Shown here piece by piece: positions 6,628-34,399 of a stretch of DNA of 38,207 nt (the first letter of the stretch is position 1; the number at the start of each line of letters is the position of its first letter). The notes below the pieces were generated by a model. That model made no database searches. It saw only the letters and a list, made by a program, of their open reading frames with translations, and was not told where the DNA came from. Made by a program: the position numbers and the translations under genes. This DNA is from Chiloscyllium plagiosum. Lineage: Eukaryota. The stretch covers positions 7,518,728-7,556,934 of the forward strand of contig NC_057752.1 of NCBI RefSeq assembly GCF_004010195.1, written 5' to 3'.

Positions 6628-6838
6628 AAAAACCCAAAGAACTGCAAATGTTGTAAATCAGAAACAAAAACAGAAGTTGCTGGAAAAGCTCAGCAGGTCT
6701 GGCAGCATCATGAAGGACATCATCCACAGCCAACTGATGAAGGAGCAGCGCTCCGAAAGCTAGTGCTTCCAAATATACCTGTTGGACTATAACTTGGTGT
6801 TGTGTGATTTTTTAACTTGGTGCACCCCAGTCTAACAC
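6628..6838. mobile_element. Two fused short Penelope-derived fragments (6628-6710 minus; ~6725-6838 plus with hammerhead)
   Basis: gttgctggaaaagctcagcaggtctggcagcatc shared with 26178-26280 and 34320-34398; the right part matches the 3' end of the Penelope element at 10010. Confidence 0.75.
6731..6765 (+). ncRNA. Minimal type I hammerhead ribozyme motif (family A)
   Basis: caa-CTGATGA-a-ggagc(agc)gctcc-GAAA-gc-TA-gtg: core boxes, 5-bp stem II, palindromic AGCT stem III, CUA cleavage triplet; stem I imperfect. Confidence 0.75.
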
Positions 6839-7339
6839 GTTGAAATCATTATTATTTATTGTAAGTGTGAGTTACGTGTAATTTTTAAAAAAATAATTAA
6901 ATCTTGCTCTTTGTTGGAAGGAAGCTTTTGACTGGAGCTCTGTCTTGCTTGGAATGACATTTTGGACATCTACCAATAAATATTGTTGAAGAAAATATAC
7001 TGCATTGATAAATTGGGAATCGGCTGCATGATCCAGTGACCTGCTATCGAAAAGTTCCACAGAAATGGTATGGCATATAATTTCTTTGGAAATGTTGTAA
7101 AATGTTATTATGGGTAGAGCAATCCTGAAGAACCATGCAGTAGACAATGAAGAGGAAATGAAGCTGTCAGTGCATTTTAGTTTGTTTCTAAATTGGTTGT
7201 GCAAGCATCATGTAAATGTCATTTTATGAGGATAGAACACCTCGCCTCAAACAATAGAAACCAAGCTGAAGGTGATTTTGTTCACTGCTCTATCTGTTTG
7301 CTTATCATCTTTAATAACTTAAATCGACATTGCACCCAT

Positions 7340-8135
7340 AAACACAGTTAAGCAGCTCAGAGGTGAAGTGAGTGGACATATATTTCACTGATGAACTACA
7401 GTGTAGAGAAATGTAAAATTTTCACATTAGTAGGGGAAAAAGAAAAGTGGGATGTTTTTTAAATAGTGAGAGACTGGGAGGTGTTAAATTTCAAAGGGAC
7501 TTTGGTGTCACTGAGAGACAACGTGCAGGTGCAGTCAGCAAATGGTATGTTGGTCTTTATTCCAAGAAGATTTGAGTATGTTAGTAAAGATGTTTTATTG
7601 CTATTGTATAGACTCTTTGTGAGACCACACCTGGAGTATTGTATGCAGTTTTGGTCTCCTTACCTCAGGAAAGATATGCAAAGGTTCACCTAACCAGTAC
7701 CGGGATGCAAAGATCGTCCTGTGGGGAAAGATTAACTGAACTGGATGAGAAGAATGACAGGTGATCTCATTCAAACATGCAAAATTCTTAAAGGATGTTC
7801 TGTGTTCCGTGTGTGAATTGACAGCATAGATGCAGGAGGAATATTTCCCTTGACTGTGAAATCTAACACCGGGGACACAGTCTCAGGCTCAGGGGCAGGA
7901 CATTTAGGACTGAGCTGAAGAGAAGTTTCTTCACTCAGAGGTTGATCACTGTGGAGGCTCAGTTGTTGAGTATGTTCAAGATGGAGACTTATAGATTTCC
8001 ACATGTTAAAAACATCAAGGGATACGCAGATAGTGCAGGAAAATGGTGTTGAAGTAGAAAATCAGCAATTTTCTCATTGAATGACAGAGCAGGCTTGAAA
8101 AGCTGAATGGCCCTCGACTGCACCCACTTCTTACA
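7340..8135 (+). mobile_element. Decayed CR1 LINE 3' portion
   Basis: ORF 7466..7693 LYRLFVRPHLEYCMQFWSPYLRKD; CR1 3' UTR-like end gctgaatggccc...cccacttctta. Confidence 0.85.
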
Positions 8136-8176
8136 ATTAAAAAAATGGATCTCGGTTTTGAAGTTTTCAATTGAGG

Positions 8177-8497
8177 GGGAGGCAATAGCCTAATGGAATT
8201 ATCACTGGTCTGTTAATTCAGTGACCCAAGTAATGTTCTGGCACCCAGGCTTGAATCATGCCATGGCTGATGGTGGAATTTGAATTCAATAAATATCTAG
8301 ATGTAATCCATTGACGATTGTGAGGAAAGAAAACGATCTGGCTCACTAATGTCCTTTAGGGAAGGAAACTGGCCTACATGTGACTCCAGACTGACAGCAA
8401 TGTGGTTGACTCTTAACTGCCCACTGGGCAATTAGGGTTGGGCAATAAATGCAATGCCCAGAAATGCCCTCATCCCATGAATGAATTATTAAAAAAT
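8177..8497 (+). mobile_element. tRNA-derived SINE with LINE-derived tail
   Basis: A-box-like tagcctaatgg and B-box-like ggcttgaatca; tail gggcaattagggttgggcaataaatgc...catcccatgaatgaat followed by an A-run. Confidence 0.75.
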
Positions 8498-9381
8498 TGA
8501 CTATCAGTCTCAACAGCCTTTTCGGGAGACAGTTCCAGATTTCCACTATCCTTTGTCCAAAGAAAACCCATTCACTAAATAGAAGATCCTTTCCAGCCTC
8601 ATTAAAAGTTATTGAATCATACGGCATAGAAACAGACTCTTTGAAGCCAAGTATTTTCATTTCAGACTCTGGCAAACAATGCACAGCTCTAATTTATTCG
8701 TGTTATGTGAAGAGTGCCTTTCCCTTTTAGTTCTTGCTCTGGTGTCTGGCGTGACTATTCTCCCACACACACAGTAGGAGTATTTATTTGCTTGTCAGGA
8801 TTTTCTGCTTAAGCCATTCTCCCGACATTGCTTCTGACAGAGGCTTGCTCCTGATATGAAACGACGGCTGAGGCAATGGAGGGGAATCAATAACTCTGAC
8901 CTTAATGCCAGTTGCAGAGCTCTGATGCAAAACCAGTTTGCTTAAAGTGAGAAAAAAAATTATTTGCTGCAATTAATTTTAAATTCTGACAGCCAGACTG
9001 TCGAGGTGCGAAGAAAAATGGTACTTTACCGTGAATTATACTTGAGCTCTGTATCTGACAAATGTCTCTGAGACTCGATTAAATGACTTTGTGGTTTTTC
9101 AGGTGTGTCTCAATAAATAAATTGGTTAGAAGGTCAGCCCCAATATATTGTATTGATAATCATACTGTTGAGCTTTACTAGTCCTGCAGAGAAGCTTCAG
9201 GTTCCAATAGTAAACACCCTGACTGACTTGCAAACAGTGGACCTGGTGAGAGACTGGGAGATGTTAAATTTCAAAGGGACTTTGGTGTCACTGAAAGATA
9301 ACATGCAGGTGCAGCAAGCAATTAGGAAGGCAAATGTTATGTGCCAGTTAGTTCCAAAATTCTCCATACTCCTAGATATTG

Positions 9382-9545
9382 ACATGACATCAGGTTATAG
9401 TCTAACATCAGGTTATAGTGAACCTGACGAAGGGGCAGTGCTCAGAAAGCTTGTGATTTCAAATACATTTGTTAGATTATAACCTGGTGTCATGTGACTT
9501 CTGACCTTGCCCACCCCAGTCCAACACTGGCACCTCCACATCATG
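9382..9545 (+). mobile_element. Short Penelope-derived element (family A) with degenerate hammerhead and an inverted 5' segment
   Basis: CTGACGA-aggggcagtgctca-GAAA-gctt at 9424-9452; downstream sequence matches 6765-6838; 9382-9407 is an inverted copy of 9470-9495. Confidence 0.75.
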
Positions 9546-10065
9546 ACCACACTTTTTTGTGCTGTGTTTCACTTTGGATACTCCATGATCTACTCTATTA
9601 AGCTCTATCACAATGATTTGTTAATGCACATGGATGTCTTGCTGTTTCTTCACTATTTGGTCAAATTGCACTGTGGCACTTGGAGCAGTGTTATATGTAT
9701 GAAGGTGATGTGAAGCTTACGAATGTCAGATATGAGTCCTCATTGATAGAAATCATTGCCAGGCGAGTGATGAGGATGCGCTGAATGGTGCAGTATCTGT
9801 GGCTAGTAATGCAGCTATTAGAATATGGTACATTAAGGTGCATTCACTGCCCTTGGACACACATGTATAGTTATTGAACTTCTTGTGGCCCGACATCCAA
9901 GTTTTCAGGGCTTGACCGCCGAGAGTTGACCTCCATGCTATCTGCTCCCATTGCTTCCTGACCATTTGTTTGGAGGGCTTCTGCAACTGGGGACATCACT
10001 TCTCCTTTTCACCAAGTTAAAAATCTCACAATATCAGGTGATAGTCCAACAGGTCTATTTGGAAG

Positions 10066-10100
10066 CACTAGCTTTCGAAGTGCTGCTTCTTCATCAGATG
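10066..10100 (-). ncRNA. Minimal type I hammerhead ribozyme motif (family A)
   Basis: Reverse complement: cat-CTGATGA-a-gaag(cagca)cttc-GAAA-gc-TA-gtg; stem I cat/gtg, 4-bp stem II. Confidence 0.8.
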
Positions 10101-10504
10101 GTTGTGGAGCAGCATCATAAGACACAGACTTTATAGCAACAGGATTGCAACGTAATATTAAACAAATTTAGCTTAAGTCTTTCATCTTTTAGAATGACCA
10201 TGTTAGTTGTGGTTCCTTCATATGTAATCTCAGAACTTCTTTAAAGTTACGTTCTCAAGATAGTTTTTAACAATAGATGTCATCTCAGCTCAGATAACGC
10301 ATTGAAGGTATGAAGTTAAAGTCTGTCTTGTGTCCCAATGTTAGGTCAGACTGATTCTACTTCTAAAGTGGGAGTTACAGAATCTTGCATGGGTTTATGC
10401 AGTTTTTGAGCAAAAGAAAACGTAATTCTGTAAGTACAAATTCACCCACAAGCTTTTATGTGGGCATGTGTGTGCAGGGGAGACCAAGTGAGAGTGTGTA
10501 TTGG

Positions 10505-10588
10505 GTTGGGATATCTGGTCAGCATGGACAGGTTCGATCGAAGGGTCTGTTTCCATGCTGTACATCTCTATGACTCCATGACTCTATG
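10505..10588 (+). mobile_element. CR1/HE1-type 3' tail fragment nested in the Penelope UTR
   Basis: ggtcagcatggacaggttcgatcgaagggtctgtttccatgctgtacatctctatgactccatgactctatg with 8-mer tail repeats. Confidence 0.75.
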
Positions 10589-11151
10589 TGGGTGTGTGTA
10601 TGGGGGTGTGAGTGTCTGTGAGAGAGTGTGTGTCTGTGAGTGTAGTGGGGTATTCATCTGTGAGAGGTTGCATGTGTAGGTGTGAGTGTGGGGGGTGTGC
10701 GCGCATTTGCGAAAGGGTGTGTGTACATAAGAAAGGTAGAGAGAGTGTGTATAGTACAGTGGGGCACCTGTAGTGTGACATGAACCTAAGGTCCCGGTTG
10801 AGACCATCCCCATGGCTACCGAATTTGACTATCAGCCTCTGCTCGGCCACTTTGCGTTGTTGCCTGTCCCGAAGTCCGCCTTGGAGAATGGTCATCCAAA
10901 GGTCCAAGGCCGAATGTCCCAGACTGCTGAAGTGTTCCCCGACTGGGAGGGAACACTCCTGTCTGGTGATTTTGTGCGGTGTCCATTCATCTGTTGCCAT
11001 AGCTTCTGCTCGGTCTGATGGCCAATGTACCATGCCTCAGGGGTCTCAAATGCAATTTCGGAAAACCTTGGAGCCTTCAAAGTTTGTGCGAAGATTTGTA
11101 GCTCGGGTGCTTGTTGTTGTGGTTCTGTTCGCCGAGCTGGAAGTTTTTGTT

Positions 11152-11191
11152 GCAAACGTTTCGTCCCCTGGCTAGGCGACATCATCAGTGC
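11152..11191 (-). ncRNA. Minimal type I hammerhead ribozyme (family B, left arm)
   Basis: Exact reverse complement of 11480-11519. Confidence 0.82.
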
Positions 11192-11479
11192 TTGGGAGCC
11201 TCCTGCGAAGCGCTTCTTTGATGTTTCCTCCGGTGTTTATAGTGGTCTGTCCCTGCCGCTTCCGGTTGTCAGTTTCAGCTGTCCGCTGTAGTGGTTGGTA
11301 TATTGGGTCCAGGTCGATGTGTTTGTTGATGGAGTTGATGGTCAACAAACACATCGACCTGGACCCAATATACCAACCACTACAGCGGACAGCTGAAACT
11401 GACAACCGGAAGCAGCAGGGACAGACCACTATAAACACCGGAGGAAACATCAAAGAAGCGCTTCGCAGGAGGCTCCCAA

Positions 11480-11519
11480 GCACTGATGATGTCGCCTAGC
11501 CAGGGGACGAAACGTTTGC
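11480..11519 (+). ncRNA. Minimal type I hammerhead ribozyme (family B, right arm)
   Basis: gca-CTGATGA-t-gtcgcct(agcc)aggggac-GAAA-cg-TT-tgc: stem I gca/tgc, stem II with one mismatch, palindromic AACGTT stem III, GUU triplet. Confidence 0.82.
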
Positions 11520-12376
11520 AACAAAAACTTCCAGCTCGGCGAACAGAACCACAACAACCTTGGAGCCTGTTCCTCTAATAATGGTCCATTGTTATTAATG
11601 TTTCCCAGGTTGGAATTATTTCCTGAATGACTGACAAACACAACGCACCTCTCCTTTATGAAGTGTGTACCAGCCATTAAGTGGTGCCAGCCATTAACAA
11701 CATTAGCCTCCTGCTGATACTTTCAACCAAGTATTGTAGCTGCTTAGATGCTGATAAAAAGGATATGAGCAGGCATCATGAAGTTTCCTTGCATTACCAA
11801 TAGCCTGTGCAGTTCAAGTGTGTATTGCGCTCCCTATGCTTAATTTTGGCTATTGAATTTACTCCTTATTTCTTTATTGTTTGCTTTCCTTGAGATATAA
11901 AAATGACAATGCACAGTCCTGTAAACTCTCCTGCAGACATTGTGAGTGAAACAGAGATACTAAGATACAGCAAGATTCTTCCAAAGAGCATTTTACTTAG
12001 GTGGCAGAAATGACGAAACTGTGTGGTCTGATTAGAAAACTCTTGACATTTTGCTCGATTGAGCACAGACAGCAGTTGTCAACGTGGTATTTACAGAGGA
12101 GATTTGGAATACAGACCCTCAGCCTGTCAAAACGTCCTTCAGTTGTGGGGAGTTTGATGATGCATAAGACAGATTCAGGACAAACGAAGAGATGTGGAGA
12201 CAACCTGTTTCAATATTGTGCTCAGATTAAAACACGTACAACATCACTTTCGAACAAAATGCACTGTCTATCTGGTAAAATTGAAACAGTCACTTGATAG
12301 CACGTGCAGATGGAACAGAAAATAAATGCTATTTCCATTAGCAGCAGATTACTATTGTGCTCCAGAGTTTGGGTAT

Positions 12377-12805
12377 TTTTTTTATTCATAGGACTTGCGC
12401 ATTGCTGGTTGGGCTGGCATTTATTGCTCCTCATCCCTAGTTGCCCTCGAGAAGGTGGTGGTGAGCTGCCTTCTTGAACCACTGCAGTCCACGTGCTGTC
12501 TTAGCCACTGTTAAAACTTGCTAGGCCATTTCAGAAGACAGTTACGAGTCAATAAAATTGTGGTGAGTCACATTTTGGCCAGACCAGGTAAGGGTGGTAG
12601 ATTTCCTTCTGGAAACCAGATAGGTTCACCCCTCAACAATTGACATGTGGTTTTGTGGTCCTCATTAGACTTTGATTTCAGATATTTATTGAATTAAAAT
12701 TCCATCATCTGCAACAACAGGATTTGAATCCAGGTCTCCAGGACATTAGCTAAGTTTCCTAGATTAAAAGTCTAACAATAATACCACAAGGCCATCACCT
12801 CTTCA
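12377..12805 (-). mobile_element. tRNA-derived SINE (related to 8177-8497)
   Basis: T-run then ctggcatttattgctcctcatccctagttgccctcgagaaggtggtggtgagc tail; head ends ...taacaataataccacaaggccatcacctc. Confidence 0.75.
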
Positions 12806-13644
12806 CTATACAGCCTTTCTACTACAGCAAGGGCTAATTTGGAGGTTTTATTAGGATTGGGTAAATTCTAAGATCAAAGGCCTCAGAAGACAAATGTTTG
12901 GATACCTCAACAGTTGGTGTGAGATGCACTTCAGCAAAAAGATTCCAGATGATCAAAAATCTAATTTGCCAGTGTTGAAGACCATTTGATCTGAAGAGAC
13001 AGGTGAGCATTACTTAGACATCATGAGAAGCTGCTCAACAGCTACCAGCACCAGCTTAACAAATGTGTACATGAAGTAAGATTTTATGTTTTAAATTCCA
13101 GATCCGACCACTGCTCACAGTTCCCACTGTAAAGTAATCAACATGGCATAGAAATGTCATGTGCATTGTGAACTATGAAAGTAAAATTGATTGGGCAAAT
13201 ATTTGGACACCTTAGCCACTACTCTGACAAATGCAGCTACAGTTTAGTAAGGCTAACTCCACAGAAGAAGAGAAAGGAAAAGGATAAAAATAATTGATTG
13301 AAAAATCACAAGAAAAACATTCTGTGAAAGGCATCTTTCTAGTACCTGATGTTGTCCTGTCTTCGCGCTTGATTGTATTTTGAACAGTCCAATGTTATTG
13401 TTGCTACTATCAAAAAATTATCACTCAAAGAATAAAATTCTTCGTGCTGACTGCTTTATATTTCCTTCTCCATTTAATTTTGTTTCTATAAACCGGTCCT
13501 ATTTTCCTGACTTACTTTGAAATAGTATCCTAGAGTTATACTATTTAGTACTTGCCCTGCTTTAATATCATACCACCATTTCTCCAGTTTGTCAAGCTTG
13601 TTTTAATTCATATTTTTTCATATACATCCCATTTATATTGGGGA

Positions 13645-13810
13645 CAGTGGTTCAATTACAATGTTTAAGAACATTTGAATGGATACATGAATAGGAAAGG
13701 TTTGGAGGGATATGGGCCAGGAGCAGGCAGTGGACGTGTTCGGCATGGACTGGTTGGACTGAAGTGTCTGTTTCCATGCTGTATTACTCTATGACTATGT
13801 CCCTATGACT
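13645..13810 (+). mobile_element. CR1 3' UTR fragment
   Basis: ggatacatgaataggaaaggtttggagggatatgggcc...ggcatggactggttggactgaagtgtctgtttccatgctgt...ctatgactatg. Confidence 0.8.
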
Positions 13811-14100
13811 GTCAGAGCGGTTGTCTATAGATATGTCCACCCACCCTCTCAGGTGGACATAAAAGATTCAGTTGCATCATTCAGAGAAGAATAGGGAGGT
13901 TTTCTGTTATCTTGGTCAACTTTTTCCTCAGCCTACATCACCAAAACAAATTATCTCTTCGTTTATCTCAGTATGCACACATTGGCTGCCATACTTGCCT
14001 GCAAATAAAAGCAATTGGACTTCAGATGTAATCCATAGCTGTGAATTGCTATGGGACGTCTTAAGAAGGTGATGTTTGATGCAAGTACATTTTATTCTTT
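13811..14100 (+). mobile_element. Deu-domain SINE fragment (SacSINE1/AmnSINE-like)
   Basis: ccctctcaggtggacataaaagattc...attggctgccatacttgcct...gctgtgaattgctatgggacgtc; recognised from memory of the Deu domain. Confidence 0.65.
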
Positions 14101-14106
14101 CATTTA

Positions 14107-14468: not shown

Positions 14469-14490
14469 ATAAACTCAACACAACAATCTA

Positions 14491-16140: not shown

Positions 16141-17082
16141 TAAGCAACCAAAGCATAATCGCTCTAAAAGATTATATATGCTTACTGCATGTTCCGGCAT
16201 TTATGTAAATTCAATTGACTCTGAAGTTTAAGGGCTGTGTTAAACTTTTATATGATTCAGTGTGGAACTCACTCCCTTTGTCAAGTGGAAGGATTTTATG
16301 TGAAGCCCCTGGTAGAATATTTTGAACTAACCTTTACTTAATTTGCTATCTGAATCAATGCAGCAAAACAGATAAAATAAGTGATTTAATAAACCAATCC
16401 ACGTTTCAATGTATCTAAGAAGCTGTAACCTCCAGGCACCTGAAGTAGCTTTTAACCAGTGACCCTTACCAGAAGGATGTGGAGACTTCCTTCTTCAAAG
16501 ATCATTACCACCCTGTAGTCAACAAACCTAACAAAATAACTGAGAGGTTCCTGCCTCCAGTCAGCCTTAGCATCTTGAAGCTGAAAAAGAACCTTACTAA
16601 TGTACCTTAGAGGTTTGGTCTGACAGATATGCATGGAAGCTTGTTGTCAGTGAACCATAATGAGTCCAGTTGAGAGCATAATTGCCTTTCTTTGTGTACA
16701 CAGATTTCCTTGCAGTCAGGTCTAAAATAAGCCTGTTTTATTGCAGCTACTTATAATTGCTGTTTTAAGTTTTAATCCTGAAAGTTTCTCGGGTGTGCAG
16801 GGATGTTCCATGGCTGTTGCAGAAGTTTGAGGCTCCTTAACTGCTATGGGCAAGAAACATGCTACCTTTATTAACATACTAGATTGAATAACTTCAGAAA
16901 ATTATTACTAAGAAACTTTTATGAGATGTTAATATTTGAATACTTCTTTTGTAATCTCTTCTGTTCATGAAATTATCAGCTGCTGGGAGATGATCAATAT
17001 TGTTGGAAAAATGTTATTGAACACCAAGGTATAACTCTCTCTTCCAATCTTTGTTCCCTCAGCTGGGACATTCTGCAATTCC

Positions 17083-17214
17083 GAGGAGAAAGTGAGGACT
17101 GCAGATGCTGGAGATCAGAGCTGAAAATGTGTTGCTGGAAAAGCGCAGCAGGTCAGGCAGCATCCAAGGAACAGGAGAATCGACATTTCGGGCATAAGCC
17201 CTTCTTCAGGAATC
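17083..17214 (-). mobile_element. 132-bp Penelope-derived hammerhead element (family C) with 10-bp TSD
   Basis: ctgcaattcc at 17073-17082 and 17215-17224; minus strand starts gattc-CTGAAGA-agggc(ttat)gccc-GAAA-tGTC-gattc; near-identical to 18873-18987. Confidence 0.88.
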
Positions 17215-17681
17215 CTGCAATTCCATCTATCACCATCATGATTCAGTTTCACAACCGACATTTGCCCCATGCATTGTGGCACTGAACATTAGTGCCATAA
17301 TAAGTGGTGCAATACCATTCCCCTTGTACTTCAACACAGCTCAAGACTTTGGGCTTCATCTTACTTTGTTTTGGTTAGGTGTCAGTTTCACTGAGTTTCA
17401 TGAAGGTTTTCTCACCGAGAGGCCTGGAAAGATCTCTTCCTCTCCTCATTAAAGTCCTACCCCACCCTTATGGCTCATTTCTCGCCCAATTTTAGCCCCA
17501 TTCTACCGCAAGCCATTCTGACAACATCTTGCCACTCCAGCAGATATCTGCCAAAAGACTAGCATCTCCGGCGCCCACATCAATTTTAAAAGTCCATTTT
17601 GCACCTAGGCAAGCGCTAGCATTCTAAAGCTGCCCTGCTCAGTGACAGACTATCATTCTGAACATATCAGAGGAGGGGAAA

Positions 17682-19300
17682 ATGGTGCCACAATTCTCCA
17701 GCAGGAACCTGGAGATCCTGGTGGATGGGGTGGTGCAAAAGAGAGCTGTCATTTTACTGGAGAATCAGTAAAATGACCCTTGCAACCTGGGATAGTGTGA
17801 TCTCCACGATCCAGAGCAATGGCCAGCAATGCTGCAAGGTCGTTAATGCCTTGCTGTACTCTGCTAGGCTAAGTGCCACGTTCACCTCTCTGTGACCTTA
17901 CACTAACTACCTCTGCTACTGCACCCACCTCCCACCAGTGCTCACGCCCTGCCACTCTCACTATCTTCCCTCACTGACTCTCATGTCCCCACAACCTCCC
18001 ACACCACTAACCCTGCATGACCTCTGCACTGCCTATTCATTTGCTCAGGAGACCTCGCCACCTTTCAAGCACCAGCACCAGCACCAGCACTAACAGCTAT
18101 GCCGCCCATTTTCAGCTCACTGAATACCTCCTTTTCTCTCAATCCAGGCAAAAGCAGCCCATAACATGGCAGAAAGAGCCATAATGGTGGAGGGGTGCCT
18201 AACATCAGGCTCCTCATCCACTATGGGTAGAGAATTCTGTCCCTTGCAGGTGAAGACTAAGACTGCTCCAACAGAGACGCCAAGACATCCATGTCTTGAC
18301 AATTGTGTAAGTACCATTCTTCATTCCACTGCAAATCTCACATTAACCCTTTTGTCAGTGTCATTCATTGCACACCACGTCTAACCATTTGTCATGAAGC
18401 CATCTCTTCCTTGCATCTTGCAGATACCAGCAGAATGTCCACTGAACTGCTGGAGAAACGGCCAGAAACCACCTCATTGAACTCTGAGGAAGAGAGTTCC
18501 AAGGCCTCAAAAGAAGTATCAGCGAGCCTGCCTTCTGCACCCACCTCCAGTTCAGATGCTAACACCTCCATGGGAACATCACGTTTAGGGGATTTGTGAG
18601 CACAAGCTGGTGAGCATCTCAATGCTTCGACTCAGGAGCTGGCTGAGGAACAAAAAAACAACAGGCAGCTGGCACTCGGAGGAGTGCACCTGCACTCTCC
18701 TTCCCACCACGTCTCAGTGCACACCCAGGTTCTGCAGCTGAGTTAGAGGGAGCCCCCTGGGTAGTGGAGCCCATTGGCTCCGGAGGTTTGGTCGGGCAAG
18801 AGTCAGGTCCAGCCTTCAGACACACAAACACCTGCACTTCATCACAACTCTTATTGGTCCTCATGACTGAAGGAGAAAGTGAGGGCTGCAGATGCTGGAG
18901 ATCAGAGCTGAAAATGTGTTGCTGGAAAAGCGCAGCAGGTCAGGCAGCATCCAGGGAACAGGAGAATCGACGTTTCGGGCATAAGCCTGAAGAAGGGCTT
19001 ATGCCCGAAACGTCGATTCTCCTGTTCCCTGGATGCTGCCTGACCTGCTGCGCTGTTCCAGCAACACATTTTCAGCTCCTCATGACTGAAGTCATGGTGA
19101 CAGGGGGATGGAGAACCTGGCGAGCACTCCAGGTGCACATTCTTCCCAGGTGCCCCTTCCTCACAAGGAGACAGGAAGAACACAACCAGAGGAGAAACTA
19201 TACATAGACGCTCAGAAATCTTCACTCAGGACACTCCAGAGGTTGTTCGACTCACCATCTCCATCCTGCTTGTGCTCCTCCGACCTTTGGAAATTCAAGC
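17682..19300 (+). pseudogene. Decayed intron-containing Myb/SANT-like DNA-binding gene of a Harbinger-type transposon
   Basis: Exon 1 MVPQFSSRNLEILVDGVVQKRAVIL...GQQCCKVVNALLYSAR; exon 2 from 18148 AKAAHNMAERA/GGGVPNIRLL..RILSLAGED with gtaagt at 18307; Ser/Glu-rich exon 3 after ttgcag at 18423; stops and frameshifts present. Confidence 0.75.
18873..19078. mobile_element. Palindromic family C hammerhead element with ~15-bp TSD
   Basis: Inverted arms 18905-18987 and 18996-19078 (83 bp, 1 mismatch, 8-nt spacer); tcctcatgactgaag at 18858-18872 and 19077-19091; core CTGAAGA-agggcttatgccc-GAAA-cGTC at 18987-19014. Confidence 0.9.
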
Positions 19301-20794
19301 CAAGGTTGGTTCACTTACTTCTGATGAGACAACCCTCAGCATGCCTGGGCCTTCTGGATACAAACACCCACTCGGTTGTCCGACCAAACCTCAGGGGCCA
19401 ATGGGCTTCACTACCCAGGAGGCTCCCTCCAATCCAGCCTAACAACTTGGGTGCGCACTGAGACATAGTGAGAGGGAGAGAAAGAGAAAAAAAAAACAGC
19501 GTTGAAGTATTTGAGGGCACTTTGACTGTATGGATAACACAGCATTATATATGAAGTTGCATATTTGCAGATCTACAGATTTGTTTGCATATCTGTCGAG
19601 ACCTGCATGTAACTGCGCCAGGATGATGCTTAACATCATTGCCACATAGGTCGCATTGTGGATCAGTGTCAGTGTTGAGAGCCTGCTACAGCATCCAGAA
19701 GCAAGAGGAACAAGATGTATGTCGGGCAATGGGTTCTTTTAATGCCATTACCTTATGGTAAAATATCACTGTTCTTTCCCTGGTCTTTGTGTACAAAAGT
19801 GTTGGTGTGAACAAACTGGTCAATAATGTGTGGAGCAGGAAGGTGTACAGCAAACAGGGAGCCAATGCATTAGGATCACCAGGGATTAGGAGGCCCACAG
19901 GTCTCTGTCCTGTTCAGTGCATTGGTCGGTGTGCAATATTATTGTCCTCTAAAGGCCCTTATATTGGTGCATCTTGAATTCTTGTCCCTTATAGATCAAG
20001 ACACAACCTGCTTATTTCAGGTGTGGTTGCGTCCATTTGCCTTCATATTGCACAGCTTCGATTTCCAGCATGATGGAAAGTGACTGTGAATGTTCTTCAG
20101 TCAGTGGAATCACCTCTATGTGTTGGTGAAACCCTTAACATCCTGATAATTGTTCCCATAAGTTCTATAGGCTTTTCACCTCCCCAGGTGCCCACTCATC
20201 TATATGAGTCTGCACCAGCCTACCTTTCCCTCCCAGCTCCTGGCATATGAGGTGGCCATGCCAGGTGTGATCATACACTATCACCACTTGAGACCAGAGT
20301 GCTTCTGACCATGGACAAAGGTTCCCTACCCACATAACCCTGTTTCCTTCTATTTTATTCTATCCTCCCTTACAAATACAGTCATGCCCCTTTCACAATT
20401 GGCATCCTCCTTCCCCAAGCCTGCAGCCCTCAATCCACACAAATCGGATCCCAAGTCTCCTTTCTGAGGCAGTGGCCCCCTTTATCACCCCAAAACCTGT
20501 TTCCCCCAGTTTCTTAGGGTGACAGACTGGCCGCAGCCTTCCCTCATGAGCAACCTAATTGGACAGCCCTGGGCAAGAAGTGTCCAGATCCGTGCCTGGT
20601 GGTTGAACCTCTCTCCAACTACACTGGCCCTACCACCCAGAGTAACTTGAAGGTTAAAATTCTTCAGCGAGCTACAACTTGTGAGCATTCAAGTTGCAAA
20701 CATTTCAGTAGTCTCATGCCAAGAGTTAAAAGCAATTCTTTTCCTTCTGTCCATGTCTGAGGTACCCTGACACATGTTTATAAAGAAAAAGAAA

Positions 20795-22004: not shown

Positions 22005-22350
22005 GCAACATTCCTACAGGACTTGAATGGAGAGATAAAAAAAGGATGTTTCACCTGGCTGGGGTCGAGACACAGTCTCAAATGATAAAATAAGGCTTTT
22101 AGGACTGAGTGAGAATTTCTTCACTCAATGGGTATTGAATCTTTGGAATTCTCTACCCCAGAGCGTCCCAGAGTATTTGAGTATATTTGAGGCAAAGAGA
22201 GAAATAATTCAAGATATAGAAGCTATCAAAGGATAGCAATAATGTAGGAATATGGTGTTAATTTAGAAGATCAGCAATGATTTAGTAGAGTAGTGAAACA
22301 GGTTCCAGGAGCCAAAGGACCTACTGTTGCTGTTATTTACTAAGTTCCTA
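22005..22350 (+). mobile_element. Old CR1 3' fragment
   Basis: ggatgtttcacctggctgggg...aatttcttcactcaatgggtattgaatctttggaattctctacccc...aaaggacctactgttgctg. Confidence 0.7.
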
Positions 22351-25311: not shown

Positions 25312-25856
25312 TGTTACGGACCAGGCCAAACCCCCTCCAAACGTTTTAAGAAGGTAGCCCAGACCCTAACTTATTACTTTTTTTTAGGCAGATGGAAAGT
25401 GGATATTCCAGGTGTTAAACAAAACAGAATTTATTTAAACATTACGGATTACAGCAACTTAATGAAGCTGTTCCAATCCCTGCAATATTTCATAAACACA
25501 CCCTTTGTCAAAAGGTAAATTCAAACACAGGTTCTTACAAGCAGGAGAGGTTTTAGACAGAAGAGTCAGATGAGCAACATCCATCGAAGCGTGGAACCTC
25601 TTTTTACTGTAGTTGTTTCTCTAGGTCCCCAGCAGTTTTTTGACTGCGTACTAAAACTAAATCAAACTAGAAAAGCCTGAACTGGGAGAACTGGCCACTC
25701 CCCTTTCATTGTACAACTGTTTTCAAAAAACCTAAAGGCCTCTTCTGATTGTGGACTTAGGCAGTTTCTGTCAGCCATTTCAGCACCACTGCTTTTACAA
25801 CCCCTCTTCAAAAAAAAAGGACAAAATAACCTTGTTAAAGGAGCAGCATCATCACA
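25312..25856. mobile_element. Solo LTR with 4-bp TSD
   Basis: TGTTACG...CATCACA termini; TAAC at 25308-25311 and 25857-25860. Confidence 0.85.
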
Positions 25857-26177
25857 TAACCCAGCAGTGGTGAATTCCTCCGAGAATGGTGTGTGATTAG
25901 AATCAGCTAATTACTGAGGTGAGTTTGGGATGATATGGTGAGAAATCCTGTTTGGCATTGCAGGGGGAAACTGTCCATAAAACTCAACAAAATTCCCACT
26001 TAAACAAAATATGACAAAATTCAGCCTGCAAAGTTGAAAATACCATTATTACAAAGCTCCCATATGCTAGGGGTGAAGGCATCCATTAAAGTTACTGCTT
26101 CATGAGCTAAAGTATGAATTTAGTGGCCATGAAAGTGAATGATATTACTCTTGCTAAATCAAATACTGTTGACCCTG

Positions 26178-26280
26178 AAACTAAAACAGATATTGCTGGA
26201 GAAACCTAGCAGGTCTGGCAGCATCTGTGGATAGAAAGCAGAATTAACGTTCAGGTCCTGCGACTCTTCTTCAGACCATG
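26178..26280 (-). mobile_element. Short Penelope-derived element (family D) with degenerate hammerhead
   Basis: Minus strand CTGAAGA-agagtc(gcag)gacct-GAAc-gtta; GAAA box damaged; related to 6628-6710 and 34320-34398. Confidence 0.68.
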
Positions 26281-26646
26281 TGAACACCTGTTTTTGTTTA
26301 GTACTTTTGACCCAGATGTCAATGAAAACTATTTCTAAGATAGGCCTAATGCAGAGTAAAGCTCTTCCCAAGCAAAAACAGTTCTCCCACTTCTTTGCCA
26401 AGGGCTCCATTTCATACAGCAACAATCCTTTGCCTTCTCTATTGACATTGCCAGTGTTGGCAGTTCTGCTTTGTGAATCTATGTGTTGTGGAGAAAGTCT
26501 GTATCATCAACACATTTTATCTTATTCTTGAATGTTATTTCTTTCATTGTTGCGGGTAATGCTTGTGTTATATGACTCGGTGGCATTTATAGTGTAGTTT
26601 ATTTATATTATAATTAAGACCTAAGACTTGACAAAAATGCTGACTA

Positions 26647-26865
26647 CAGGCCGTTCTGCTATAACGCACATTTCATTAACGCTTATTCGCTATAACACGA
26701 TTGGCGAACTGGGGACGTTGTTTCTAAAGTGCAAAGTTTTAAAGAGTGTATTGGTTCTACCGTGATTCCGGCCCCATTAGTTTAGTTGGTGCTGCTAATA
26801 CACGATTGTCTTATAACATGGAATTGCACGAGAACGGAACTGCCACATTATAAAAGAGCTGACCG
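26647..26865. mobile_element. TA-flanked MITE (Tc1/mariner-pogo/Tigger-like)
   Basis: TA|caggccgttctgctataacg ... cattataaaagagctgaccg|TA, with internal repeats of gctataac. Confidence 0.75.
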
Positions 26866-28919
26866 TACCTGCATTTTCAAAATATTGACTATTATGGAAA
26901 CTTGCCTTTATATTAATCAGCCAGTTCTGTTTTGGAAGACAAACTGATAGCTGTTCTAATCTTTTTTGGTCTGGATGCTTAAAAATTTCATGAATTATTA
27001 TTTTAAGATTTGACTAATTTAAATCCCCCAGGAAAGGAGGGGAGAAAAGGACTGAGACAATATAAGAAAGAAAACCAATCTCAATATTCGTTGATTGGTT
27101 TTAAGTTCATAAGCAGGATGAGAATGTACAAAATCTGTTTAAAACACTGAATTAATGAATTGAATTGTTAAAAGTTAGGTGGATGTGCTCTTTTGAATCA
27201 CAATTGTTTAGTTACATTTCAGCTCTTCCCTGGTGAGTTCTTCACCTTCATTTCTTGGAGAGATTATTATTGACAAATTGCTTACACTCAGAGGATTGTG
27301 ATCATTCTTTCCATGCATGTGATAATAATCAGTATGCAGAAGAATTCAGGAAATATCTGATACAGTTATAACTGGGGATAAAATAAGCAAAAAGAAATCA
27401 CATTGGCATAAAATATCTCATGTTATTATTATCAAAATCCACCTTACCTGCATCAAAGAAATGGTTAGGTTCACATATTTATGGATTACAATAATTTAGA
27501 TCTGCAAATAAGCTAAATATGATAAACCATATGTTGAATGGAGATGAAATGTTAGAGGAAAAACTATAATACAACTAAGTGTAAGATTGTGAATTAATTA
27601 TGCTAATTTAGCAATTAACTTGTGCAAAATATATGCAAAGCAAAATAGATTTTCCCCTGGACCACAAAACTTAGATTTCAAATCCTATAGAAGGCTAATC
27701 CTAGTTTAGGGAATAGTGAAACGTAATTAAGAAAACATATTTTCTTAAAACCACACTTAAATCATTTCATTTCTTCTTCATCTGTTGAAAATAACTTTGT
27801 GCTTGAGCAGTGAAGTGCTGCTTATTTTATTCAGGGCCCTTGCAACCAGCAGGTGAATCTAGGCAGTTGCCTGGACCAGCAAGATTTGACAGGGGAGGAG
27901 AGTGGCTGGCAAGAATCTGCCATATTTTAAAAATCAGAATGGAAAGCCAGCCAGAGACCCATAAAGCTCAGCATCAATCACCTGATACCCAAAAAGAAAA
28001 ATTCCAGACGATTTCAAAACAATGTTTTAAACAAAGCAGTCCCTTAATTCATCACTGGCAAACAAGGGACAAGAAACTCCATCCTCCATCTTCATGAGGC
28101 ATTGTAAATGTTAGTCTGAGTGGGATGGTTATGAGCTGGGCTTTTGACCACTTCCATTTCAATCGGGCTAGTGATTTGTTTTTAAGTTTTACTTCAAGTG
28201 TTCTCACATTATTTAGATTAATGACTATGACCGGAAGTTAACCAATCTTCAGCCTGCCCATTGCTCTGATGTGTTCACACAATGAGGAGTTTGAGTTCCC
28301 AGTGTAGAAGCACAGTTCACAGTTATTTAAATAATTTAAGTGCAACAGAGAACCAATTCCATGTCACATGTAGACTTTTCCCAAATGTTAAAAGTTGGTG
28401 TTTCTCCAGTGCAGATTACCTTCACCATGCTGTACTGTTGCTTATATATTTTATAGCTAAACTTAGTAAGGACAGAGCCAAAAACCCTGGGTAGATTTTT
28501 GGAAACAAAGGATCCTATTTTAGTGAGAATAGGTGCTGAAAAGGGAACTCATGTTTAATTGTGGACTGTACCGTTTGCTTGCTTAACCAAAATATGCATT
28601 TTCCCCACCTACTGCAGGCGAAATTCCTCTACGTCTGTGTGCAGTGTAGTTGTCATAATATCTACTTTCTCATACATGAATATTCATATAATACTGCTGC
28701 ATAAAATGTCTGGGTATTTATAATATGTGCAACACATATAATAAAGCCTTTAATGTATATGTTTATATAACATTGTAAAAGGTTGAGTGCCAGATCTGCC
28801 ATAGTTCCACTATCATTAACAAATATTACGTGAGATGTTGTACTATAAGGCCTGCTGGTGACTGTGTTATTGCTCAGTGCAATCAGCTTGTTTCTGTAAG
28901 TGGTTTTATGGTCATTATT

Positions 28920-28995
28920 TTTATTTGTTTGGGAGACATGGGCGTCGCTAACTGGCTAGCATTTATTGCTCGTCCCTAGTTGCCCTTGAGGATGT
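28920..28995 (-). mobile_element. SINE/LINE 3' tail fragment
   Basis: gcatttattgctcgtccctagttgcccttgag matches the tail at 12417-12452. Confidence 0.7.
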
Positions 28996-29199
28996 TTGAC
29001 TTTGCAAAAGGTATAATGCTTGGTATCATTGCACTCTTATTTTCAAAATGTTGTATTGCTTACAGATTTTATCTGCTGCTTGATCGAATGTGAATTCCCA
29101 TGTTAACTTGCTCCCTAAGTCCATCCCCAAGTTCCCAGGATTTGATTCCTCTTAGCAATTACTCATGCTGCACTGATGGTTTTTCATGTTAGTTCCATT

Positions 29200-30330
29200 A
29201 ACATCTCCCAGAATATGTCCAGAGTTGGCAGATCCATTCACTCTATGTATCTGTTCTGTTTAGGAAATGCACATGTAATCAGTGTTCTTCCTTCTTTGAG
29301 TGCTTTTGGGGGTGTTCGGGAGAAGATTGGGGTGCACCAGGCTGGAGTTTTCTGGGGCAGCACGTACCCTGGTGTTGGCCTTGATTTTTTCCTTCTTTTC
29401 AGTCGACTATCCTGTCTGTGTTATTCTGCACTCAGGATGGCCAAACATGTTATACATGTGTGTGGTGCCTGATATTGCAATCCCTTCTGTCATTCTTTTC
29501 GGGATTTGCTCCTCTCCTTCTTTGGTCTTTGATTTTTGGTCACCAGATGTATGGAACAAGCAAGTTAAACAGGGAGATCTGCTAGTTGTTTTGCTTCTGG
29601 GCCTGTTAAAAGCCAGAATGTGCAGGTACAAGTTTTAGAAGATTATCAGGAGTGGTCTCTGTCTGCAAGCCTATATCTGAGAGTTCTGTTATGTTCTCAG
29701 GTCAGGAAGGAAGCCAATGGAAGGCAGATTGGAAATTGCCAGCTGTTTTAATGTAAGACTGGGAGGACCACTCCTACTACTGTTAATTACATATTCAGGT
29801 AAGTAAGAAACTTTCAACATATTTGAACCTCTGGTTGTTTCTTTAATGGCCATGGTTTTGGTACAGGGCATGAGAAATCTGGTTGCAGAACTTATGGCAC
29901 AGGCTAAAAACATGGGCACTGTACAATCACATTTCTCAGCTATTGACACAGTGAAGTTTTTGTTTTTCAAGATTCTTTCTTGCTAAGATGATTCTGTCCA
30001 TTTAAAAATATGAAAGACCAATAACTGAAACAATTAAGTTATTGTTGAATAATTTTCTGAAGGTCTTGAACATTATTGAACGAGCTCCTGTTGCTTTTAT
30101 TTATTCTGGGCAGTTATTTGCAAATAAAAATGCATCAACTATTATTCCACCTGAGGTACAAACATGGAAGTGTTTGTGTAAACTGCAACCACATGCAGGG
30201 GAATTGATCCCTAGATTATACGATTCACTAGTTTGTTGTTTAGAGACTTCTAGTCCCAATCTCCTCAAAGTAACTTTGACTTTTCTTAATTCTCTCGCAT
30301 AACATGATAAGCTAGAAGACAAAAATGCTA
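29200..30330 (-). pseudogene. Ancient, highly decayed Gypsy-type integrase region
   Basis: Collinear degenerate motifs: CPE*IKATGARS (HPGI..MK..ARS), YLPEYVINSSRSGP (GLPE.IVSDNGP), LADR/TTP..LVPAH/LAFNR (LAYRTTP..SPAELLFNR), TPKSTQRR. Confidence 0.55.
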
Positions 30331-30554
30331 ATAATATTTACACAGACAGGATACATCACTGGCTCATTCATTATATGGTGTAGAATTTTACATTTAATTA
30401 TCACAGCTATTAATGAATGTTAGCATTTGTGCAGGATTTTATTCCACACAAATTATTTCTTCCATTCATAATCCATCTTTACTCAATCTTTTGCTGGCAA
30501 TTTCTTTCTCTTTGTTCAAGTTCATTTAGCTTATATGTGGTCAGTGTATAAAGC

Positions 30555-30772
30555 TTTGTTGGCTGGACAGCTAGTTTGCAATGCAGAATGATGCCAACAG
30601 AGTGGGTTCAATTCCTGCACTGGTTGAAGCTACCATGAAGGACTCTCCTTCTCAATCTCACCCCTTATCTGAGGCATGGTGATCCTCAGGTTAAACAACC
30701 ATCAGTCATACCTCTTTCTCTAATGAGGGAGCAGTCTTATGGTCTGGTTATACTATGGTGATGTTACCTTTA
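30555..30772 (+). mobile_element. tRNA-derived SINE
   Basis: gttggctggacagctagtttgc...gtgggttcaattcc (B box) ... tactatggtgatgttaccttta tail. Confidence 0.65.
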
Positions 30773-31470
30773 GTGCCTTGAAGGAATAATTAAATTTTGC
30801 TTTTCAACAAACATATGAGTTTTGTTTCACCCAGTTTTGAAGACATAGTTTCTTTATTTCTTTTGCAAGTCTAACCAACAACTCCCATTTTTTTTATCTT
30901 ATGTGGATTCAGTCTTAACCTTTCTTCATCCTATGACATCTCTGACTCATTATGTGCTCCAACCTTAAACAGGGCTCCGACATCTCTTTTATCACTGAGG
31001 TTGTCTTCAAAAACTAGACTTGTCCCATCACAAAAACAATTTCCCACCAGTGAGTTCTTAGTTCAGTATAAATCCTATACAGTATTAGGGATTGGGTTGA
31101 ATTTGCAATTTTAGCTACCAAACATTTAATCCAGATGTTTTAATGATAATCTCCAAAACTGAAACCTCCCTCAGTTCCTCCATAATCAGACACTGAATTT
31201 GTTATTTCATCAGAATAAATTTTAATTGTTTGTGATATAGATTACCAGGTAAAGTCATTGAAGCAGATCGTATAAATGGATTCAAAGAATAACTGGACAA
31301 GTTACTGTAGAGAGAAGGAATTAAGCAACCCCATAAGAAGATATATAGGTGAAACTGTTCTTTGTAAAAGTGGAAAACATGTTTGGATTTGGATGGTTCC
31401 TAAAAATACTTATCTTCTTTAACTTTTACTGGTGGCGGATATTGTGGAGGACTGCTTGAAGTTATAAGTA

Positions 31471-31666
31471 CAAGTCGTTCTGCTATAATGTGACAGCTGT
31501 GTTCCTCTGCAACCTTGTGCTATGGAAAACTGCTATAGAAAATCCCGCTGTAGAAGATTGCTAATAGAAAATTGCTATACCTGTTCAGTAGAAAGTTCGC
31601 GTTATCCAAACAATGTCCACAATTAATCAATCGCGTTATAGCCAATTTGCGCTGATGAAACGCCTG
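31471..31666. mobile_element. TA-flanked MITE, same family as 26647-26865 (reverse orientation, one end partly deleted)
   Basis: TA|caagtcgttctgctataatg...cgcgttatagccaatttgcgctgatgaaacgcctg|TA. Confidence 0.72.
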
Positions 31667-32748
31667 TAGGCTCCAGTTACTGAATATTAAAACAAACTGA
31701 AATGCTACTCTCAATTATAACTGATCTCACTTTTATTTATCATTAGAGGGGAAGGTCTGTGATCTTATATTACAGGATATTGATACATATGGAACTTTTG
31801 GTGCCTTGATTTATCAGCGTCACTGGAACCTTAAGATCAACATTTACATTTTACTTGTCAATGTTTTTATCTTTATTTCCCTGAAGGTTCTTGTATTTTC
31901 CTCAATGTTAACTATAAACCAATTGAGATATGTGAAAATAATGAAAACTGTCTGACATTGTGTTACTTTATGCACAAATATAATCATTCCACCTAGTTGA
32001 GGGGAGTCCTTCATTAATTCATGAGTACTGTGGACAATTGGCTCAATGTATTGATAGTGTCTAGGCTGGGAAAACTTAGTTGTAGAAATAGCAATTCCAT
32101 TTTGTTTAACCTACATAAATCCTGTAAAAAAGTGGAATTATGCTTGTCAGTGTCTAAAAATATATTCCACTACATCTATAATCTCGACAAAATTAAACTA
32201 TCTCCTGGTGACAATCTTTTGACTTATAGGACATAATAAAGATTTTAAAATACAGTAGGCTACTCAAGCTGTAGTAATATAAAAGTTTGTTTATCTGATT
32301 TCAGAAAGCCTTCAGCTAATTCAGCAATCAGATTTGATCCTTCTCTCAAGAAAAAGACACAAATGTCTTCAAGGGTTCTACTCCCACCAGCGACAAGAGT
32401 CCTTTGCCAATAATTTCATATTTTGTGTTAACATAATGAAGTTTGATAGCTTAGTGTTTTCACCACAGAAACAAAAGTTTTGTCAGGGCAAAGCCTAACT
32501 CAAAATTCATGATCTGCCATTGTGTTGTGGGCTTTTGCTTCCAGCAGGGTATTTATACCTAATGGGTTAATACTTATTTAAGTTTCCAGAATATAAGAAA
32601 TAGATGTGGATAACATGGTACTGAAAGATTCAATAGATTTTTATTACAGCTTCTGGTATGCATATATATTATAATCACAGGAATTCAAGTGCCTGGGCTA
32701 GTACTAAGTATTCAGTTACAAACACTAGCACCCGACAATCAGCATGCT

Positions 32749-32877
32749 ATCCTGATGAAGGGCTTTTGCCTGAAATGTCAATTTTCTTGCTCCTTGGATG
32801 CTGCCTGACCTGCTGTGCTTTTCCAGCACCACACTCTTGACTCTAATCTCCAGCATCTGCAGTCCTCACCTTCGTCT
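32749..32877 (+). mobile_element. Older family C hammerhead element
   Basis: atc-CTGATGA-agggc(tttt)gcct-GAAA-tGTC-aat, then ggatgctgcctgacctgctgtgcttttccagc...ctccagcatctgcagtcctcac; CpG-decayed relative to 18987. Confidence 0.82.
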
Positions 32878-34320: not shown

Positions 34321-34399
34321 GCAAAACTCAGAAATTGCTGGAAAATCGTAGCAGGTCTGGCAGCATCTGTGGAGAGAAATAAGAGTTAACACTTCAGTA

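Follow-up and report, generated by a model that had tools for sequence, protein, structure and literature searches.

A 38,207-base stretch of the genome of the shark Chiloscyllium plagiosum (the window) contains a series of hammerhead ribozyme motifs, which raises the question of whether these belong to small mobile RNAs in their own right or to larger retroelements. We find that they are very probably minimal type I hammerheads of the pseudo-LTRs (pLTRs) of Penelope-like elements (PLEs), left behind where at least two autonomous PLE lineages produced short insertions. The copies are best read as truncated, mostly decayed PLE end-pieces rather than as separate tiny elements.

Hammerhead motifs and the chance level

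Hammerheads were detected with a descriptor that specifies the core, an optional extra base, at least four of the first five stem II pairs, GAAA-N-N-U-H with pairable N-N, and stem I. With one stem I mismatch permitted, eight minimal hammerheads match in the window (38,207 bases), whereas 500 block-wise dinucleotide shuffles gave a mean of 0.004 and a maximum of 1. With zero mismatches, three match (10097-, 11188- and 11483+) and the 500 shuffles gave none. The CTGA-N-GA...GAAA cores that an earlier note on this DNA had listed at 6734+, 9424+, 10097-, 11188-, 11483+, 17209-, 18987+ and 32752+ are all present, and its ninth motif, 26274-, is degenerate as claimed, with GAAC in place of GAAAC (one core A missing) and G10.1-U11.1. 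Five of the nine motifs are clustered at 6.7–11.5 kb.

We give practically no credence to the reading that the motifs arose by chance or through errors of assembly. It could draw on an Rfam search that retrieved no hammerhead match at E<=5, and on the one chance match that a looser descriptor admits, 7388+, which is accepted solely when stem I is disregarded and falls within a LINE reverse transcriptase remnant. Chance is, however, already refuted by the eight observed matches against the shuffle mean; furthermore, stems I and II differ in sequence between families yet still pair (alignments judged by eye), and both palindromes described below are bounded by target-site duplications (TSDs). 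The miRNA matches in Rfam are these two palindromes, with scores below the gathering cut-off. Other CTGA..GAAA strings, at 3494, 7125, 31652, 20100, 13931 and 326, all fail the descriptor.

Structure of the hammerheads

The minimal type I core, CUGANGA...GAAA-NN-UH without a helix III loop, is found in all motifs except 26274, and all nine have an extra base after A9. The pair G10.1-C11.1 is G-C in six motifs, G-U in two and broken in one (9424). The 15.1-16.1 tetramer is AGCT at 6734, 9424 and 10097, ACGT at 11188, 11483 and 18987 (four ACGT once 26274 is counted), and the non-palindromic ATGT at 17209 and 32752. The earlier proposal that all intact copies have a self-complementary tetramer therefore holds for six of the eight core-intact motifs but not for the two with ATGT; when the degenerate 26274 is included, the tetramer is palindromic in 7/9. 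As the window has a CpG observed/expected ratio of 0.25, ATGT is probably a CpG decay product of the tetramer.

All three stem I pairs are retained in only three of the nine motifs: for instance, the innermost pair is lost at 6734 and 32752, and the 5' strand of stem I is absent at 18987. Stem II comprises 4–5 bp in families A–C. Covariation among three family A copies is limited to one compensatory pair and is not significant (161 of 500 shuffles scored as high). Predicted folds count little in either direction: stem II formed in most monomers, the full hammerhead fold was absent from monomers and dimers, and the hammerhead dimer was not the minimum-energy structure in any of four tries. In one RNA run, read ends did not pile up, though a 27-nt 3' product could not be placed. 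Our model is that solo copies are most likely inert; judging from the literature, the hammerhead of the parent element probably cleaves weakly, either after dimerising via the palindromic tetramer or aided by the PLE protein.

Families and insertions

The division into about four families of PLE-type minimal type I hammerheads (A–D) was borne out, with families B and C related to each other (71% over 82 nt). Since 11188- and 11483+ sit on opposite arms of the same palindrome, the nine motifs represent eight insertions. Units of ~100–150 bp, as proposed earlier, describe copies such as the 132-bp 17083..17214 but not the family D insertion (about 480 bp) or the element at 10097 (probably about 1 kb). 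PLE end-pieces, with bounds as drawn in this analysis, make up ~6.6% of the window (2534/38207 bases). For contig comparisons, we used contigs from two organisms. Summed contig depth, which is not copy number, is 14–59 on unique flanks versus about 1e5–2e6 on element ends, where it declines toward the 5' side. In a Pfam search of 123/123 frames of 65–99 aa and 10 of the 39 frames of at least 100 aa, only retroelement domains and no host exon scored above the curated cut-offs.

Families D and A and their PLE proteins

The family D insertion (11077..11555) is arranged head to head: the minus-strand arm is tailed (11077-11112), the plus-strand arm is tail-less, and a 12-nt spacer separates the two. 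The arms measure 217 nt and are 99.5% alike, and the insertion is flanked by a 13-nt TSD (11064..11076 and 11556..11568). Other family D copies, in contigs of the two organisms, terminate at 11076-77 or 11112-17. The strict descriptor match at 11155..11188 (minus strand; ACGT, H17=U) has its mirror copy at 11483..11516 on the plus strand. The insertion contains the C-terminus of a Penelope/Poseidon-type ORF (11172..11342, minus strand; mirrored at 11344-11499 on the plus strand), whose stop codon falls within hammerhead loop II and which has 81% identity to PLE proteins of C. punctatum and Hemiscyllium ocellatum. Judged by these sequences, family D is a Penelope/Poseidon-type PLE. Both the D and the B palindromes are predicted to fold as near-perfect hairpins, and the hammerheads of palindromic copies would most likely be locked in such long hairpins.

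Family A is likely a Neptune-type lineage, as judged from the sequences around the hammerhead at 10069..10097 (minus strand; AGCT, H17=A; strict descriptor match). This hammerhead belongs to a probable 5'-truncated Neptune-type PLE (10019..11050, minus strand) that comprises a GIY-YIG remnant, a CA-rich 3' UTR, the hammerhead and a tail-less end. The remnant (10767..11044, minus strand) is C-terminal and frameshifted, lies upstream of the hammerhead on the same strand, and is 81% identical to a Chiloscyllium punctatum protein (tblastn E 1e-31); its relatives carry RVT_1 and GIY-YIG. Two features break up the stretch between remnant and hammerhead: a low-depth CA-rich bin and an unrelated LINE 3' tail within the 3' UTR (10500..10586, plus strand; 77–81% to 13737-13807 and 36674-36751), which we take to be CR1-like and which has heterogeneous loose ends at 10575-10586 in the contigs. 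The element's continuity across about 10500-10750 is inferred, as no listed contig piece spans that stretch.

The presence or absence of a linker between reverse transcriptase (RT) and endonuclease (EN), CX2-5CxxC, distinguishes the Neptune/Nematis from the Penelope/Poseidon clade. When tested on relatives of the two families rather than on the window sequence itself, the linker was found, as C-x4-CxxC, in 3/3 relatives on the A side (P0001, P0008 and P0009) and in 0/3 on the D side (P0022-P0024), which matches this split.

The other two family A copies are stubs on the plus strand. One, at 6710..6855 (core 6734-6762), has a partly deleted tail and a 5' end between 6710 and 6723. The other (9423..9545; core 9424-9452) is of a second subtype, has a tail and ends where other family A copies in the contigs of the two organisms also terminate (9543-9545). 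At its 5' junction, 26 nt of the family A 3' region recur in inverted orientation (9382..9407, minus strand; 92% match).

Families B and C

The 132-bp solo stub of family B (17083..17214, minus strand; core 17209-17182) has a tail, starts 5 nt ahead of the core and is flanked by a 10-nt TSD (17073-17082 and 17215-17224). A second family B insertion, 18873..19076, is again head to head: its tailed minus-strand arm (tail about 18873-18904) has its 5' end inside stem II, the tail-less plus-strand arm begins at the core (18987-19014), and a 15-nt TSD encloses both (18858-18872 and 19077-19091). An older tailed stub lies at 32749..32877 (plus strand; core 32752-32779, G10.1-U11.1; 87% to the 17209 copy). 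Family C comprises a tail-less stub with the degenerate hammerhead (26177..26277, minus strand; core 26274-26246) and a tailed 3' fragment without a hammerhead (6625..6709, minus strand), which begins some 20 nt downstream of the cut and matches 26177-26225 at 86% and the 3' end of family B at 78%. The 5' bounds of the 32749 (B) and 26277 (C) stubs are limits of alignment only. A further family C fragment without a recognisable core, at 34329..34390 (minus strand; 87% to 26187-26248), was absent from the earlier list.

The window search revealed no PLE ORF match near family B or C. A pattern scan for the two families returned no locus in a viral collection and five metagenome loci, which we rejected as chance since only 23–25 nt match and no PLE protein is adjacent. 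That Penelope RT/GIY-YIG mobilised these elements is shown for family D, where the ORF end lies inside the insertion, and likely for family A with its same-strand upstream GIY-YIG remnant; for families B and C, we infer it from architecture.

Insertion ends, polyadenylation and proposed origin

Three insertions have TSDs, of 13, 15 and 10 nt, versus 0/2000 random pairs; a TSD of at least 10 nt was found in 3/11 boundary sets tried, and none for 6734, 9424, 10097, 26274, 32752, 6709, 34390 or the C+A composite 6625-6855. Tailed and tail-less ends occur in all four families, and the tail measures 32–36 nt.

We propose that PLE RNA is transcribed through the pLTR, as established for PLEs, and that the GIY-YIG endonuclease makes staggered nicks, which would give rise to the 10–15-nt TSDs. 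Reverse transcription would start within the RNA at one of two sites that lie 32–36 nt apart downstream of the cut site; the tailed and tail-less ends are observed, and the mechanism that would produce them is taken from Frangieh 2024. Synthesis of the cDNA would usually end prematurely, in many cases where the hammerhead begins, and leave a stub; sometimes both target ends would be primed, and the two cDNAs would join head to head into a palindrome. A single folded-back cDNA could hardly account for the B palindrome, whose spacer belongs to the tail-less arm. As the copies span the cut site, the template would have been uncut RNA. Decay of the copies would have followed.

Polyadenylation offers a possible reason for the stubs. 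In one poly(A) single-cell RNA run, the poly(A) tail of family A RNAs begins about 27 nt downstream of the cut (10041-10042, minus strand; 568 and 225 reads have poly-T loose ends), a position upstream of the two proposed RT starts (about 50–59 and 92 nt past the cut). The poly(A) signal (10059-10054, minus strand) is AATAGA in this copy and AATAAA in most reads, with T at 10055 in 1085/1131 first-mate-plus reads. The unique flanks had zero reads in the same run, of which about 2 in 100 were read. Tentatively, stubs may be a built-in by-product of the design of PLE RNA, an idea that we hold to be possible but rather doubtful. The transcript would start in the 5' pLTR just upstream of the hammerhead; with the poly(A) site before the RT starts, the mRNA would offer a start only in the 5' pLTR, so that RT would copy 100–130 nt and run off, and palindromes would result from priming at both nicked target ends. 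If true, this arrangement would explain why stubs outnumber full copies, and the stubs would spread strand-specific poly(A) signals through the genome, which would supply the host with poly(A) sites.

Alternative explanations

Families B and C, and perhaps some of A, could instead be separate non-autonomous mini-PLEs, whose own master RNA of 100–130 nt would begin just before the hammerhead and be copied in trans. The 5' ends would fit this idea: the TSD-bounded 132-bp copy begins 5 nt ahead of the core, the arms of the B palindrome begin at about 0 and +9, the 9424 copy begins at about -1, and loose ends precede 9422 in 631 contigs, where agreement is low (0.41); in addition, no B or C ORF was seen. 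However, RT that starts in the 5' pLTR of normal PLE RNA and then runs off gives the same clustering, 5' ends were counted only for core-retaining copies, which biases where ends fall, and families A and D reach into ORF sequence. We therefore regard mini-PLEs as improbable.

The earlier note had called the elements retrozyme-like units. As non-LTR retrozymes, they would be hammerhead-to-hammerhead monomers that are circularised and reverse-transcribed as monomers or arrays. The units are indeed small and dispersed, a derivation of retrozymes from PLE pLTRs is known, and one chondrichthyan genome has retrozymes. But 0/3 TRF arrays in the window contain a hammerhead, all hammerheads are minimal rather than canonical with a helix III stem-loop, and ORF sequence is carried by, or precedes, two of the insertions. 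None of the copies starts at the cut site. Their 3' ends coincide with PLE tail positions, and they have PLE ends, TSDs and inverted 5' arms instead. The name is not supported, and a retrozyme origin is highly unlikely.

Comparison with known systems

Non-LTR retrozymes are described as tandem arrays of 150–450-bp units with canonical hammerheads, or by at least two consecutive complete hammerheads (Cervera & De la Peña 2020, PMC7229834; 10.64898/2026.07.22.740005). The elements analysed here share with them the type I hammerhead, the small size and the relation to PLEs, and dispersed monomers also occur there (PMC7229834; 10.64898/2026.07.22.740005); the window has none of the tandem arrays that, together with circular RNAs, define retrozymes (PMC7229834; Li et al. 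2026, 10.64898/2026.07.22.740005).

The PLE end-pieces are closer to the minimal hammerheads of metazoan PLE pLTRs, whose marks are the extra base after A9, G10.1-C11.1 and a palindromic 15.2-16.2 (Cervera & De la Peña 2014, PMC4209133). Shared with these are the type I core without a helix III loop, the same marks, several families per genome, and mostly solo copies of truncated PLEs with some close pairs on opposite strands (PMC4209133). Stem II has 7–8 bp there versus 4–5 bp in families A–C (PMC4209133). About 4,000–9,000 motifs per genome are given there, and one per about 4 kb here implies far more if the window is typical; the vertebrates named in that source, with no shark among them, are fishes, coelacanth, Xenopus and reptiles (PMC4209133).

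Insertions of EN+ PLEs have an inverted 5' pLTR, an optional 30–40-bp tail and a TSD (Arkhipova 2013, PMC3846280; Craig 2021, PMC8557442). Head-to-head inverted arms, a tail at one end only, TSDs and strong 5' truncation are likewise found here; in contrast to the EN+ PLEs described, whole insertions measure 130–480 bp with little or no ORF, and TSDs are 10–15 nt rather than 8–10 nt long (PMC3846280; PMC8557442). PAc, a Poseidon element of Anolis (Frangieh 2024, PMC11167929), starts reverse transcription at two internal sites, which define the tail, as we also propose here, and its AC-rich RT start resembles family D. Its template is uncut RNA, and both target strands are nicked and extended, which we propose here from sequence; the ORF of PAc begins at stem II, whereas the upstream ORF of family D ends in loop II (PMC11167929).

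A literature search retrieved no title on shark PLE hammerheads; Cervera 2014 and Li 2026, the latter with one chondrichthyan, may already include these families in their supplements. Very many short TSD-bounded insertions are a record of where PLE reverse transcription starts and stops, and they bear on the origin of inverted pLTRs and tails and on the purpose of the hammerhead. This kind of sequence has been described since 2014 and is not a new mobile RNA; our analysis adds shark examples to a described class.

Hammerhead motifs and their families

The window is repeat-rich and CpG-poor (GC 0.42, CpG o/e 0.25). Eight CTGA-N-GA...GAAA motifs lie exactly where an earlier note had placed them (6734+, 9424+, 10097-, 11188-, 11483+, 17209-, 18987+ and 32752+). 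A minimal-hammerhead descriptor permitting one stem I mismatch found the same eight in the window and none besides; 500 shuffles averaged 0.004 matches, and none gave more than one. With zero mismatches, 10097-, 11188- and 11483+ pass. The ninth motif, 26274-, is one A short in GAAA. Across all nine, the stem II pair G10.1-C11.1 is intact in six, G-U in two and broken in one. Three motifs have AGCT as the tetramer standing in place of helix III, four (26274 included) have ACGT and two have ATGT, so that a palindromic tetramer in all intact copies had been overstated. An Rfam search of the window returned zero hammerhead matches. We conclude that the motifs are real, though the majority of copies are damaged. 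Two further candidates were rejected: 7388+, gained by a looser descriptor alone, sits in a LINE reverse transcriptase remnant (7361-8046) and is attributed to chance, and CTGATGA at 31652 failed the descriptor.

The motifs fall into four families: A (6734+, 9424+, 10097-; mutual identity 75-88%), B (17209-, 18987+, 32752+; 84-99%), C (26274- and the core-less pieces 6625-6709 and 34329-34390) and D (11188- and 11483+). Families B and C share 71% identity over 82 nt. Between families the stems differ in sequence and, judged by eye, keep their pairing. Among the three family A copies, one stem II pair is altered on both sides, which does not exceed the shuffles (161 of 500 scored as high).

Association with Penelope-like elements

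Both arms of family D translate as the last 52-56 residues of a Penelope-like element (PLE) ORF, with 77-81% identity to shark proteins that are annotated with RVT_1 and PF26215, and the stop codon lies within hammerhead loop II. The 10097- hammerhead is preceded on its own strand by a frameshifted GIY-YIG C-terminus (11044-10767), whose relatives contain RVT_1 and GIY-YIG domains. Some 670 nt separate this ORF end from the hammerhead, and all of this stretch is multi-copy. Because this interval is broken by a LINE tail, has one CA-rich bin falling to depth 636 and is not bridged at 10500-10750 by any contig piece among those listed, we regard it only as likely that the 10097 hammerhead belongs with the GIY-YIG remnant. 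An ORF link was looked for in families B and C and none was found.

The C-x4-CxxC linker is present in 3/3 relatives tested on the family A side and in 0/3 on the family D side. As its presence or absence separates Neptune/Nematis from Penelope/Poseidon in Craig 2021 (PMC8557442), the linker in these relatives points to Neptune/Nematis for family A and Penelope/Poseidon for family D.

The retroelement remnants have their nearest proteins in Chiloscyllium punctatum and Hemiscyllium ocellatum (81%), which makes a host related to the carpet sharks probable. Pfam detected no host exon in the window frames scanned. Three shark gene models (PPP1R12A-like, XRCC5 and a 5'-nucleotidase-domain protein; P0002, P0012, P0025) contain these PLE ORF ends, reflecting either exonisation or annotation error. 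The window also holds a decayed LTR-retrotransposon pol, presumably Gypsy-like (33779-36330, -; its RVT_1, RNase H, integrase zinc-binding and rve pieces lie in different frames and follow the order RT-RH-IN), inside which lies the family C fragment 34329-34390. Broken LINE reverse transcriptase remnants, which we take to be CR1-like, occur at 1-312 (+), 7361-8046 (+), 22105-22233 (+) and 36763-37831 (-), and further dispersed repeat pairs (69-80%) at 17842-18193/23950-24303, 5773-5908/24511-24646 and 14215-14344/15536-15668.

Insertion ends

Target-site duplications (TSDs) flank the D palindrome (11077-11555; 13 nt), the B palindrome (18873-19076; 15 nt) and a solo B copy (10 nt); none of 2000 random pairs reached at least 10 nt, and TSDs of this length were absent for 8 of the 11 boundary sets tried. 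Each palindrome has one arm with a 32-36-nt 3' extension (the tail) and one arm without, and tailed and tail-less 3' ends were seen in all four families. In contigs of two organisms, among the best-supported matches listed, D copies have their ends at either 11076-77 or 11112-17, and those of A copies fall at 9543-45.

The 3' ends of copies lie 39-99 nt beyond the cut site. Where a TSD or junction fixes the 5' end, its position relative to the core is -5 for 17214, ~0 and +9 for the B palindrome, ~-1 for 9423, -141 and -153 for D and ~-950 for 10097; the bounds of 6734, 26274 and 32752 are alignment limits only. None of the copies has its 5' end at the cut site, and hammerheads are absent from the tandem arrays of the window. 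The proposal of about four PLE-derived families is supported by the ORF end for D, as likely for A, and by architecture for B and C; that of retrozyme-like units is not supported, the defining retrozyme features being absent from this window. Tandem repeats of other kinds are a 127-bp duplication (37761-38016, 98% alike) at the window end and a 13-bp array (31518-31579) adjoining a short dispersed repeat (31627-31660 and 26671-26703).

Some 15-25 nt separate the D palindrome from the point at which the family A element is truncated 5' (11044-11077), and at 6709/6710 a family C piece and a family A stub meet head to head; PLE insertion may be favoured next to other PLEs. An inverted 105-nt pair (83%; 18695-18799 and 19376-19480) flanks the B palindrome and is perhaps an older element that hosted it.

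RNA reads

From one single-cell poly(A) run, of which ~2 in 100 was sampled, 4450 reads were placed; 2899 of them have identity <90% and therefore come mostly from other copies. Hammerhead sense is favoured on all three hammerhead-bearing ends covered. Poly-T loose ends pile at 10041 (568 reads) and 10042 (225 reads), with AATAAA 12-13 nt before the pile in 1085/1131 reads (signal and site 10041-10059, -). This family A poly(A) site comes ~27 nt after the cut site (H17 at 10069) and before both family A 3' end positions. Read depth carries on upstream across the core, and thus uncut polyadenylated family A RNAs probably exist; these may be host 3' UTRs that use decayed copies. The poly(A) run has no read-end pile-up, and a 27-nt cleavage product could not have been placed.

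Proposed mechanism and comparison with known elements

Seen in the window itself are hammerheads of the PLE type, together with ORF ends, TSDs, inverted arms and two positions for 3' ends. The PLE literature describes TPRT by RT/GIY-YIG, internal initiation and an uncut RNA template, with hammerhead cleavage that is weak and helped by a dimer or protein. Solo copies would be inert. RNA that reads through the palindromes (fold z of -23 for B and -54 for D) would form long hairpins hiding the ribozyme. A start of reverse transcription in the 5' pseudo-LTR (pLTR), with run-off at a nearby RNA start, could yield short stubs beginning at the hammerhead; in Drosophila Penelope, RNA starts 46 nt before an intron, whose end meets helix I.

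Inverted arms could arise by a single fold-back, and self-priming on an antisense template has been proposed for PLEs (Arkhipova 2013, PMC3846280). The D palindrome is compatible with this and with two priming events alike. The 8-nt spacer of the B palindrome has the sense of its tail-less arm, which makes fold-back the poorer explanation, because cDNA begun at the tail would give an antisense loop and cDNA from the tail-less site has no tail for copying back. In this one case, separate priming at each of the two nicked target ends would fit better.

Among the paper titles listed by the literature search, none concerns shark families of PLE hammerheads. The family A poly(A) site and the B-palindrome spacer argument derive from the present analysis. 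The hammerhead families themselves belong to the described PLE class, for which solo copies and opposite-strand pairs are reported in Cervera and De la Pena 2014 (PMC4209133). Two internal RT start sites are given as the origin of the PLE tail in Frangieh 2024 (PMC11167929), and the two-ended 3' architecture of the window matches the PLE tail and inverted pLTR described in Arkhipova 2013 (PMC3846280) and Craig 2021 (PMC8557442).
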